This document shows, in pieces, positions 44,983-45,104 of a DNA stretch of 64,000 nt (position 1 is its first letter; every line of letters starts with the position of its first letter). The stretch is from assembly GCA_947627545.1 (NCBI GenBank), contig CANQWK010000008.1:352-64351 (forward strand), in the 5' to 3' direction. Source of the DNA: an uncultured Clostridia bacterium. GTDB taxonomy: Bacteria; Bacillota; Clostridia; Christensenellales; UBA1242. The position numbers and the translations under genes are program-made. The notes under the pieces were generated by a model. The model was given only the letters and a program-made list of their open reading frames with translations, had not been told where the DNA came from and did not search any database.

Positions 44983-45104
44983 GGAACCAAAGGTTCTAAG
45001 GGTCCCGCTTAACGAAGGTTAAGTGGGAAGAGCGAACAGCAACCGTAAATAAGCGAAGTTTTGATAAATTCAAAACGAGCAAGAGAAATGTTGCATGCGA
45101 GCGA
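44983..45104 (+). ncRNA. Unclassified structured scaffold plus 12-nt target-mirroring segment, copy B
   Basis: ggaaccaaaggt (reverse complement of the tRNA-gene breakpoint acctttggttcc), then tctaaGGGTCCCG, hairpin cttaac-GAAG-gttaag, GGGAAGAGCGAACAG, CGAAG, hairpin gttttga-taaat-tcaaaac, CGAGCAAGAG...gcgagcga. Same order of blocks as copies A1 and A2. Confidence 0.4.

Follow-up and report, generated by a model that had tools for sequence, protein, structure and literature searches.

Within the stretch of DNA that was analysed (64 kb, hereafter the window), two host genes are each accompanied by a short unit of the same build, namely a tRNA-Arg(ACG) gene with the unit on its 5' side (locus B) and a small FakA-like_M open reading frame with the unit at its 3' end (locus A). 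In most copies of the unit, the order is a gene-internal target, a first copy of the gene end (X1), an inverted 12-16-mer of the target (G), a structured scaffold and a second copy of the gene end (X2). The coordinates are collected in Table 1. An earlier note on this DNA had divided the two loci into eight ordered blocks, all of which are indeed present in the sequence.

Table 1. Features of locus B (tRNA-Arg site) and locus A (FakA-like_M site) in the window
Feature	Position	Strand	Remarks
tRNA-Arg(ACG), host gene of locus B	44872-44948	-	intact; ARAGORN and Rfam tRNA
Target site, locus B, ACCTTTGGTTCC	44901-44912	+	exact inverted repeat of 44983-44994
X1, locus B	44907-44977	+	direct repeat with X2
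G, locus B, inverted 12-mer GGAACCAAAGGT	44983-44994	+	exact reverse complement of 44901-44912
Scaffold B	45000-45104	+	fold z = -5.7 vs shuffles; covariance model 44.4 bits
X2, locus B	45105-45175	+	second tRNA 5' part + 29 nt; contiguous with native upstream region
FakA-like_M (PF21645) small ORF, host gene of locus A	3876-4163	-	
Target site, locus A, TCGTTGTAGAAGATAT	3907-3922	-	within ORF; exact reverse complement of G
X copy 1, locus A	3871-3915	-	ORF coding end through stop codon + 5 nt
G, unit 1, locus A, ATATCTTCTACAACGA	3826-3841	-	preceded by AT-rich 29-nt spacer 3870-3842
Scaffold A2 (unit 1)	3719-3822	-	fold z = -6.1 vs shuffles; covariance model 59.1 bits
X copy 2, locus A	3675-3718	-	direct repeat
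G, unit 2, locus A, ATATCTTCTACAACGA	3630-3645	-	spacer 3674-3646
Scaffold A1 (unit 2)	3522-3626	-	4 differences from A2
X copy 3, locus A	3477-3521	-	contiguous with native downstream terminator and rpmH promoter region

At the tRNA locus, X1 consists of the 5' part of the tRNA gene (42 nt) and 29 nt of upstream DNA, this copy being the one that is contiguous with the tRNA, and it matches X2 over 71 nt with 1 mismatch and a period of 198. The target corresponds to tRNA positions of about 36-47, on the opposite strand, with the X2 breakpoint in its centre (6/6), and G lies between the short spacers GGCAA (44978-44982) and TCTAA (44995-44999). Scaffold B starts with GGG-T-CCC, followed by a hairpin (P1) closed by CCC/GGG and a purine-rich joiner, after which P2 is formed by an outer helix (GCAAC/GTTGC), internal loops and an inner hairpin (GTTTTGA/TCAAAAC); the tail ATGCGAGCGA comes after P2. 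A candidate promoter of the tRNA-Arg gene was found on the minus strand (45304-45276) and is orthologous to the promoter in two related loci (L269 and L267). The scaffold strand is antisense to the tRNA-Arg transcript in the window as well as in L269, where the orthologous G is a perfect 13-mer. In a relative of which the neighbouring protein is 80% identical, scaffold B is 80% conserved, with the rest of the intergenic DNA being unalignable.

Locus A consists of two tandem units of 197 nt each. The final 13 codons and the stop codon of the FakA-like_M frame lie inside X1, and G is 16 nt long, matching positions 3922-3907 in the frame. Within the codons, X copy 2 departs from the other two copies at synonymous and stop positions only. 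The transcription unit of the FakA site includes the scaffold in sense orientation, ahead of either the native terminator or the next gene of the operon. For the enclosing helix proposed earlier, the drawing gcag...ctgc for locus A is better replaced by ACAGAA/TTCTGT (the helix of locus B being GCAAC/GTTGC).

G and its local target are perfectly complementary over 16 nt in type A, 12 in B, 13 in B', 16 in C, 15 in D, and 16 in both E and H. The length of 12-15 nt that had been given for the inverted segment therefore holds for locus B (12 nt) and not for locus A (16 nt). The match is kept despite synonymous variants of the FakA target (GTTGTA, GTCGTC, GTAGTC and GTTGTC), and the inverted segment tracks its target across species. 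The claim that the inverted segment and the flank copy are locus-specific is supported. A preset test, i.e. whether all copies carry a locus-matched inverted segment, came out positive for types A-E, B' and H, and negative for two copies at tRNA-Leu, so that the refuting condition set earlier applies in part. In addition, the left end of X2 falls within the G:target match and near its middle (with halves of 7/9, 6/6, 7/6, 6/9, 9/7 and 8/8). The foot of the first hairpin (P1) follows G at a distance of 3-5 nt on the 3' side, and G pairs with the upstream site; a matching guide at the right end was not identified, and pairing of G with the start of X2 amounts to 2-9 nt only and is not conserved. 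Inverted repeats of 11 nt or more with an 18-95 nt loop are rare: a survey of about 300 kb of related DNA gave almost exclusively G/target pairs and parS sites. The target is only 35-76 nt away from G, in cis, and it is intact at the L-X1 junction after insertion, so that there is no obvious target immunity. As read from the sequence, the FakA and tRNA sites have no target-adjacent motif in common, and L269 has a perfect TTGACA -35 box with a 16-18 nt spacer just upstream of G. Most copies have no recognisable promoter before G.

Scaffolds B, A2 and A1 are homologous and have a common two-domain fold of ~105 nt in which all stems covary. Scaffolds A and B are only about 55% alike within one genome, which is still well above shuffled sequences (z = 7.7), and the patterns GAACAG..AAAT..CGAAGTTT and CGAAGTTT..AAACGAG occur 3 times in the window, where 0 are expected. 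Eight scaffold types were gathered from the window and its relatives, at loci as unrelated as the 3' end of FakA-like_M, the 5' side of tRNA-Arg and the leader of tRNA-Leu, and the same fold was predicted independently in each. MAFFT alone misaligned the scaffolds and therefore N-padded rows and a hand-made structural alignment were used to keep them in register. In this alignment 98.1% of the pair cells are paired and 21 of 26 pairs have changed on both sides, counts that lean towards the structure because the alignment was hand-fitted to it; none of 500 shuffles equalled the observed pairing, and slid controls reached 36-44%. The earlier suggestion that the scaffolds are homologous and covary is supported: they form one family with strong covariation. 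A covariance model (R1), an approach that had been proposed, recovers type H, on which it was not trained, with E = 4e-5 to 1.6e-4.

The scaffold has a strand bias. G.U pairs are confined to the scaffold strand, and this strand folds more stably than the complementary one, by 1-10 kcal/mol, in 8 of 8 types. The loop sequences are poorly conserved. Of the earlier block list, which is present in A and B, the 6-bp palindromes (gaattc and gcatgc) are not conserved among other family members and the CGAAG/CGAG loop motif is missing from types B', D, E and H, so that neither is family-wide. The tail motif TGYGA..GC is conserved, also at the tRNA locus, and better explains the likeness of the tail to GEICD codons; derivation of the scaffold from its own host gene was ruled out, as the similarity is no better than that of shuffles. 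Scaffolds A and D, found at the same site in close relatives with host proteins that are 91% identical, are unalignable, which speaks for replacement or independent entry and against descent that is purely vertical. Together with the lack of X2 in L269 and in the one-unit alleles of type H, this makes the picture of an old scaffold with freshly programmed target parts too simple. Whatever its role, the new structured family with its working covariance model stands.

X stops where the gene functionally ends. In types A, C, D, E and H it ends at the stop codon (+0 to 5 nt), at tRNA-Arg 29 nt upstream of the tRNA, and in what may be a second element in L269 directly behind the terminator of the tRNA, with the duplicated length varying among loci from 31 to 71 nt. 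Between X1 and X2, 17 codons differ, of which 16 synonymously (P = 0.002 under neutral decay of X2), including two-step synonymous changes (AGA/CGC, TTA/CTT and CGA/AGG). Translation of X2 from a frame running through the scaffold was ruled out, this frame being open only in A and C. With differences that are nearly all synonymous and a frame of X2 that is not consistently open, X2 seems to be in continued exchange with functional alleles.

Filled sites occur side by side with precisely empty ones in a single species, the flanks being 97.6-100% identical, and chimeric X copies are found exactly as predicted by a crossover inside X. In type H, some alleles have a single truncated unit and others a full unit plus the truncated one. 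Across the arrays the left boundary is constant, whereas the right end varies (0.8, 1.0, 1.2, 1.4, 1.8 and 2.2 units). The earlier hypothesis of a small non-autonomous unit that recombines within the flank homology formally describes the filled and empty sites, the chimeric X and the copy numbers. The polymorphism and the chimeric X can, however, also be explained by recombinational loss between X1 and X2 plus ordinary homologous exchange between strains. Incomplete copies exist as well: L269 is without X2, the one-unit alleles of type H are without X2 and the 3' half of the scaffold, and L221 has two scaffold-like copies 5' of tRNA-Leu without G and without X, which lie in the leader in sense orientation and stop precisely at the 5' end of the tRNA.

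Searches in Rfam of the window (at gathering thresholds) gave tRNA only, and so did permissive searches (E up to 10) of both loci, four related loci and all scaffold types, in agreement with the earlier notion of an unknown family; models of omega-RNAs, retrons, group I/II introns and ribozymes had no match to the scaffolds. Checks by eye of a group I-type guide (terminal G, U at the junction), of a k-turn in the GAA/GA loop and of an HDV-like fold gave no fit. With blastn, four scaffold types had no match in phage and plasmid collections. The first pattern (GAACAG..AAAT..CGAAGTTT) gave 109 matches in viral contigs, all by chance, and the strict scaffold pattern gave 2 matches in IMG/VR, both by chance. 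Among the 185,579 representative genomes of GTDB, the strict pattern identified one true species next to 5 chance matches, which means that either the family is rare or the pattern too narrow. A metagenome scan with the FakA-site pattern returned at least 1 true match (L221) among the matches listed, in which an unrelated human-gut gene was dominant. Related loci (about 300 kb) were also searched generically for direct repeats accompanied by an inverted copy, which gave no further copies, and no two loci share near-identical scaffolds as a sign of recent transposition. The statement that nuclease, reverse transcriptase, integrase and transposase genes are absent from the 64-kb window was confirmed. 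Likewise, no candidate partner enzyme was found in the window or the fetched related flanks (up to 10 kb), nor were genes for TnpB, IscB, an IS110-type DEDD recombinase or a tyrosine/serine recombinase in the window or the flanks examined.

The explanation preferred here, tentatively and with somewhat less than even confidence, is that of a guide-directed, non-autonomous integrative element which repairs the end of its host gene, works through a single strand and depends on an enzyme encoded elsewhere. The unit (about 95-200 bp) comprises the ~105-nt scaffold, G directly 5' of the first hairpin, and X, with G as a putative guide and X as a replacement gene end. The anatomy, covariation, strand bias, tracking of the target by G, centred breakpoint, boundary of X and the polymorphism in presence and copy number are observed, whereas the guide role of G, the single-stranded intermediate and the trans-acting enzyme are inferred. 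The scaffold strand would be active in a single-stranded form, as DNA or RNA, after which G could pair with the intact target across the future junction and the trans-acting enzyme, encoded elsewhere in the genome, would break and join strands near the middle of this duplex. Upon entry of the unit, its own X would restore the gene while the displaced original end becomes X2, and recombination between X copies or longer repeats could then lead to precise loss, tandem arrays and truncated derivatives. Counting against the integrative element are the tRNA-Arg locus, where the sole recognisable promoter would yield the complement of the scaffold, the lack of any sign of recent transposition, of a candidate enzyme in the window and the fetched flanks and of obvious target immunity, the small number of species found, and the copies without G or X2. 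No route for writing a new G and a new X was found. That the unit represents a natural programmable insertion system without precedent is a rather doubtful proposition. Such a non-coding unit of 150-200 nt would combine a cut-site-centred guide, an enzyme-recognised scaffold and a gene-rebuilding arm, much like a guide, scaffold and repair template in one, and might enter essential genes scarlessly by guide-directed strand transfer with subsequent homology-assisted resolution.

Alternatively, G and the scaffold could form one transcript, i.e. that of a guide-RNA gene, which directs a trans-encoded protein (an RNA-guided nuclease, recombinase or repressor) to the neighbouring gene, with the duplications being secondary. 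The 12-16 nt guide, the short spacer and the covarying scaffold with G.U pairs on the scaffold strand are consistent with this, as are the tracking of the target by G across lineages, the TTGACA -35 box just upstream of G in L269, and the length of G, which is similar to that of short guides that bind without cleaving. It is nevertheless unlikely, since an effector gene is adjacent at no locus (to our knowledge, the known TnpB, IscB, IS110 and Cas guide RNAs are all encoded beside their protein), omega-RNA families give no Rfam match, the FakA and tRNA targets share no adjacent motif, a recognisable promoter before G is missing from most copies and the target is merely 35-76 nt off, in cis. 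Moreover, the end of X at the gene end and the coding-like X2 would be left unexplained. The complementarity between G and target that is maintained across lineages could also serve in cis, as part of a structured RNA (in a 3' UTR or leader) where long-range pairing of G with the gene segment upstream or downstream regulates the processing, stability or translation termination of the host transcript, the RNA having spread anciently and now being a host module. Such a role would suit the FakA site, with its sense scaffold inside the transcription unit, the sense-oriented leader copies that stop right at tRNA-Leu, and scaffold B, conserved at 80% between species amid unalignable intergenic DNA. 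A regulatory RNA, however, needs neither a duplicated gene end nor tandem units, the precise empty sites within one species make the element dispensable, the loop sequences are poorly conserved, and the scaffold at tRNA-Arg is antisense in the window and L269 even though the strand bias favours the scaffold strand. Taken together, a cis-acting role is improbable.

A SINE-like non-autonomous retroelement would be transcribed together with host sequence, and a reverse transcriptase supplied in trans would copy it by target-primed or template-jumping synthesis, with the target-derived parts as primer-binding and annealing segments and with variable termination leading to fractional copy numbers. 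Arrays with a fixed left and a variable right end would follow from this, the scaffold strand is RNA-like with its G.U pairs, and the order of guide, scaffold and target sense may be taken to resemble a template with a primer-binding site. It is distinctly unlikely, as neither the window nor any flank has a reverse transcriptase gene, 3' hallmarks such as poly-A are missing, the scaffold strand has no evident promoter at the tRNA-Arg locus and DNA recombination accounts for the chimeric X copies more simply. Direct repeats of gene ends, tandem accretion and crossover within the repeat are classical features of integrase-driven elements, and the 31-71 bp repeats at a tRNA and at a protein-gene 3' end, together with the tandem accretion and the crossover inside X, could suggest an attP-only mini-circle or deletion remnant, in which X is the attL/attR identity block and the scaffold the residue of an attP arm, mobilised by the tyrosine or serine integrase of a full-size relative. 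Stems that covary without sequence conservation, however, point to nucleic-acid structure and not to protein-binding arm sites. Its folding is strand-biased, a locus-specific inverted target copy is foreign to att sites, an integrase gene is not found nearby, and the same compact 105-nt architecture at every locus is at odds with independent deletion remnants, which makes this very improbable. Least credible is that the units have no function and arose incidentally during replication or repair, for instance through template switching, snap-back synthesis and tandem duplication at an extragenic palindromic repeat that was already there. Template switching leaves inverted and direct copies of nearby sequence, as seen here, and some scaffold copies are without G and X, but an ordered architecture that recurs at two or three unrelated targets in at least 6 lineages, where the breakpoint is at the centre of G and the first hairpin 3-5 nt away, an X boundary that coincides with the gene end, and a scaffold conserved well above the neutral level leave hardly any room for it.

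If the guide reading is true, the unit would represent a new mode of target choice by a mobile element, through a 12-16-nt complement centred on the junction, in which the built-in copy of the gene end renders insertion into an essential gene harmless. It would form a new class beside the guides of IS200/IS605, the bridge RNAs of IS110 and omega-RNAs, and would point to an enzyme of gut Clostridia that reads a compact 105-nt scaffold. Even as a domesticated cis-acting RNA or a REP-like repeat, the new structured family stands, it has an unusual population signature in that displaced gene ends evolve like coding sequence, and it marks a hotspot at tRNA and gene ends near the replication origin.

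The layout of the element fits no catalogued RNA or mobile-element family, and searches of the literature on bridge RNAs and non-autonomous IS110, miniature attP elements and PATE/REPIN/RAYT gave no description of this architecture. Integrase-driven elements at tRNA and gene ends are alike in that the gene is restored by an element-borne copy, in the direct repeats of the gene end, in tandem accretion and in precise excision at the repeats; here too, X1 and X2 flank the unit, and the tRNA and the open reading frame are intact. Those elements, however, measure kilobases and have their own integrase and protein-binding att arms, whereas the unit is 95-198 bp, non-coding, and has covarying stems and an inverted target copy. 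The joining of a conserved scaffold to flank-derived sequence recalls the omega-RNAs of TnpB and IscB, which in contrast overlap a transposon end beside the nuclease gene and use the adjacent flank itself as a guide, not an inverted copy. As with the internal guide of group I introns and the EBS/IBS of group II introns, a segment of the element pairs with both sides of the insertion point, but the scaffold is far too small and has no intron core, X1 separates the element from the left half of the target, and the orientation to the host gene is inconstant (antisense to tRNA-Arg and sense to the FakA-like gene), unlike that of an intron or ribozyme. The retron that had been among the earlier suggestions found no support, there being neither a reverse transcriptase gene nor an Rfam retron match. 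A diversity-generating retroelement was rejected because X1 and X2 differ by synonymous third-position changes of every kind, not by the adenine-position changes that mark such elements, and because the window has no reverse transcriptase gene, and a MITE because the ends of the unit are not mutual inverted repeats and the duplication is variable (31-71 nt).

Closer are two systems with guides. The IS110 bridge RNA, or seekRNA, is a structured RNA with programmable segments that are complementary to both crossover sides of the target (PMC11208160, PMC11208158). Recombination is placed there at the centre of the recognised site (PMC11208160, PMC11208158), and the breakpoint in the present unit is also central. 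The bridge RNA, however, is encoded inside the insertion sequence beside the gene of its DEDD recombinase, which is not found near the element here, and it presents split target and donor guides in two internal loops, in contrast to one continuous guide outside the helices; IS110 junctions have only a 2-nt core in common without a duplication of 31-71 nt, while here the gene end is duplicated. IS200/IS605 ends, PATE and REP/REPIN, which are handled by Y1 HUH enzymes (TnpA and RAYT), are likewise small and extragenic and keep hairpin structure over sequence; they act as single strands, with a guide that pairs with the cleavage or target site, as the present unit may do. REP-type repeats are species-specific, single or clustered, and often vertically inherited (PMC6006769; REPIN literature). 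The differences are that an IS200/IS605-type guide has 4 nt, compared to 12-16 locus-specific nt for G, that their structure is a single hairpin of 20-65 nt and not a 105-nt fold of two domains, that no target duplication or gene-end copy accompanies them (against 31-71 nt duplicated here), and that the insertion sites have no common tetranucleotide such as IS200/IS605 needs. Nonetheless, in IS200/IS605 ends and REPs the guide sits 5' of the hairpin foot (PMC6006769), and by analogy it is this HUH/Y1 arrangement that would appear to come closest to the logic of the present element.

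The scaffolds (folded elements of about 105 nt) at loci A and B, which the earlier note took to be homologous, are indeed so, since the window contains three occurrences of their common sequence blocks against an expectation of none, their similarity reaches z = 7.7, and both fold far more strongly than shuffled sequences. Related loci were reached through homologues of the small FakA-like_M ORF (locus A) and of the 684-aa product encoded next to tRNA-Arg (locus B), with one extra locus (L221) from a metagenome match. In total there are eight scaffold types, as well as a decayed 53-nt remnant in L123 and L125. 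All types start with a G-run, 1-2 nt and a C-run. Hairpin P1, which the C-run closes with a 3' G-run, comes next, and a purine-rich joiner leads on to P2, whose outer helix is followed by internal loops, a conserved C-G pair and an inner hairpin; a short tail (TGYGA..GC) completes the scaffold. This fold is predicted separately from each type.

In a hand-made structural alignment, 98.1% of the pair cells are standard pairs and 21 of the 26 pairs change on both sides, counts that are inflated because the alignment was fitted to the structure; none of 500 shuffles matched this level of pairing and covariation, and slid partners gave 36-44%. The covariance model built from it recovered type H, which was outside the training set, at E = 4e-5 to 1.6e-4, and the tRNA-Leu copy at E of about 0.01-0.05. 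The recovery of type H is an independent check on the hand-fitted alignment, and the covariation claimed earlier is upheld. Searches of Rfam (a check proposed in the earlier note), phages and plasmids gave no match to the scaffold. Scaffold kinship is out of step with host kinship: A resembles C and B but not D, with which it is unalignable, while the host proteins of A and D are 91% identical. At L221:7520-7723, tRNA-Leu(CAG) is directly preceded by two tandem scaffold-like units of two hairpins each, in sense orientation, the second (16.8 bits with the covariance model, fold z = -4.2) stopping exactly at the tRNA 5' end; neither unit carries an inverted target copy or a flank duplication.

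Features of the two loci, scaffold types and intergenic hairpins (window coordinates unless a related locus is named)
Feature	Position	Strand	Remark
tRNA-Arg(ACG)	44872-44948	-	opposite strand to locus B element
X1, locus B	44907-44977	+	5' part of tRNA + 29 nt upstream
Spacer GGCAA, locus B	between X1 and G	+	
G, locus B, GGAACCAAAGGT	44983-44994	+	exact reverse complement of 44901-44912
Spacer TCTAA, locus B	between G and scaffold	+	
Scaffold B	45000-45104	+	
X2, locus B	45105-45175	+	71 nt, one mismatch
Target, locus A	3922-3907	-	
X copies, locus A	3915-3871, 3718-3675, 3521-3477	-	
G, locus A	3841-3826, 3645-3630	-	16 nt
Scaffolds, locus A	3822-3719, 3626-3522	-	
Types A, B	window		
Type B'	L269		orthologue of B
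Type C	L113-L122 and L131		
Type D	L143		
Type E	L221		
Type H	L274-L283		
Scaffold-like pair	L221, 5' of tRNA-Leu		
GTTACTTTTCTTGCAAGAAAAGTAAC hairpins (examples)	8400-8440, 17960-18000, 20300-20345, 22500-22540, 27075-27105, 31755-31795, 37160-37200		

Locus A, at the 3' end of the 87-aa FakA-like_M ORF, has its parts in the same order as locus B, on the minus strand, as two tandem units with a period of 197 nt (198 nt at locus B). In every lineage that carries G (the inverted 12-16-mer), its complementarity to the local target is perfect, also where the FakA target varies synonymously (GTTGTA, GTCGTC, GTAGTC, GTTGTC), and elsewhere in the related DNA examined such inverted repeats are very rare. 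The locus-specific inverted segment of the earlier note thus holds in that G tracks its target across lineages, but not for every copy, as some are without G or X (the direct copy of the gene end). In six of seven lineages the left end of X2, the copy beyond the scaffold, lies within the stretch where G matches the target, close to the middle. At its far end X stops at the functional gene end, which for the FakA site means the stop codon and for tRNA-Arg a point 29 nt upstream of the gene.

In L269 (3223-3356) a second inverted 12-mer, TCCAGAGGGATT, is found 33 nt beyond tRNA-Arg on its 3' side, just past the tRNA terminator. It is the reverse complement of AATCCCTCTGGA in the T-arm/acceptor part of the tRNA; here the far end of X, too, is just past the terminator. 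GC-rich hairpins follow (including CGGGACCCCG). This region could represent a second element next to that tRNA-Arg, but the contig ends 80 nt on. Compared with L269 and L267, the window has promoter, element, tRNA-Arg and terminator (44850-45330) turned round as one block with respect to the 684-aa gene; in relatives, unlike in the window, tRNA and gene share orientation. L270 and L272, Logan contigs of different relatives, end at the identical base in tRNA-Arg (...GGTCTA), a few bases off the element breakpoint, perhaps because both assemblies broke at a repeat boundary.

Within one species (flanks 97.6-100% identical), eight filled and two precisely empty sites are interspersed, and filled alleles have chimeric X copies, part host type and part element type, matching a crossover inside X. 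Type H alleles carry either one truncated unit without X2 or this truncated unit together with a full one, and L269 keeps G and scaffold with X2 reduced to 4 nt. The arrays, whose left boundary is fixed, span 0.8 to 2.2 units. Single units measure 197, 198 and 195; 162 and 162; 157/158; and 95 nt; they cluster at 195-198, 162 and 157-158 nt even though X, spacer, G and scaffold contribute differently from locus to locus (window A and B; L282, L143, L221, L113).

X1, contiguous with the host gene, and X2 differ in 17 codons, 16 of them synonymously. Three of the synonymous changes are two-step switches, and under neutral decay of X2 the pattern has P of about 0.002; the frame of X2 is not consistently open. 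This combination means that the displaced copy continues to exchange with functional alleles, as would be expected if units repeatedly enter and leave via X, or if there is recombination with empty alleles. The X2 frame of types A and C is open back across the entire scaffold (35-42 codons; window 3482-3598, minus strand, and the L113 unit), probably by chance, since it is absent in D, E and H.

The window, from an AT-rich MAG of a gut Clostridia bacterium, is the region of the replication origin (rpmH, rnpA, yidC, jag, mnmE, mnmG, dnaA, dnaN, recF and parAB, then cell-wall polysaccharide genes). Inspection, with Pfam for unclear ORFs, found no transposase, integrase, reverse transcriptase or RNA-guided nuclease gene in it, in agreement with the earlier note. 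Its AT-rich spacers hold at least 13 copies of the palindromic hairpin GTTACTTTTCTTGCAAGAAAAGTAAC (variant GCTACTTTTTTCGCAAAAAAAGTAGC); these copies resemble bidirectional terminators and seem to form one repeat family. Three parS-like palindromes (TGTTCCACGTGGAACA), ~100 nt apart (39580-39803), adjoin parB and parA, an arrangement also present in L267. A 23-nt tandem repeat, GAAAAAACAAAGGTAAAAAAATT (44753-44800), directly past the 684-aa gene, is the end point of two Logan contigs of the same species. The ORF at 62104-62748 is Cys/Asn-rich with collagen-like GPT repeats (a weak Pfam Collagen match), and its product resembles an exosporium or BclA-type protein. Further GC-rich repeats in a relative (L271:5400-5850; GGGCGCTCGGTTGTTGC... 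twice, CCTCGCAATGACATTAGGGAC four times) are unrelated to the scaffold.

All G.U pairs are on the scaffold strand (the complement would have A.C mismatches there), and that strand is predicted to fold more stably than its complement in eight of eight types. This strand bias, and stems that covary while their sequence is not conserved, point to the scaffold strand as a single-stranded nucleic acid, either RNA or ssDNA. The scaffold strand is host-transcript sense at the FakA site and tRNA-Leu but antisense at tRNA-Arg (in the window and in L269), which disfavours a purely cis-acting RNA; a cis-regulatory RNA is considered unlikely. The only recognisable promoter at tRNA-Arg (45304-45276, minus strand), orthologous to that of relatives, reads the scaffold complement. 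A stand-alone guide-RNA gene is given the same low credence as the cis-regulatory RNA; a SINE-like retroelement is more doubtful, an attP-only mini-circle or remnant slightly more so, and a repair by-product quite improbable.

The best-supported reading, tentative and somewhat short of even, is that the scaffold units are a non-autonomous integrative element, its mechanism being inferred. The unit would consist of X, G and scaffold; G would recognise the intact target across the junction, the single-stranded scaffold would be the handle for an enzyme encoded elsewhere, and X would restore the host gene. We go no further because no recent transposition was seen, neither a partner nor a route for writing new G and X was found, the target survives insertion, and certain copies are without G or X.

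The finding itself is real, reproducible across independent assemblies and uncatalogued. Each of the known families considered fails at least one testable defining feature; the architecture is unlike any described element that we found, and we know of none that matches it. In IS200/IS605 ends and REPs the guide lies directly 5' of the hairpin foot (PMC6006769), just as G lies directly 5' of the first hairpin foot here, whereas the length of G, the duplication and the copy of the gene end are without counterpart in those systems.
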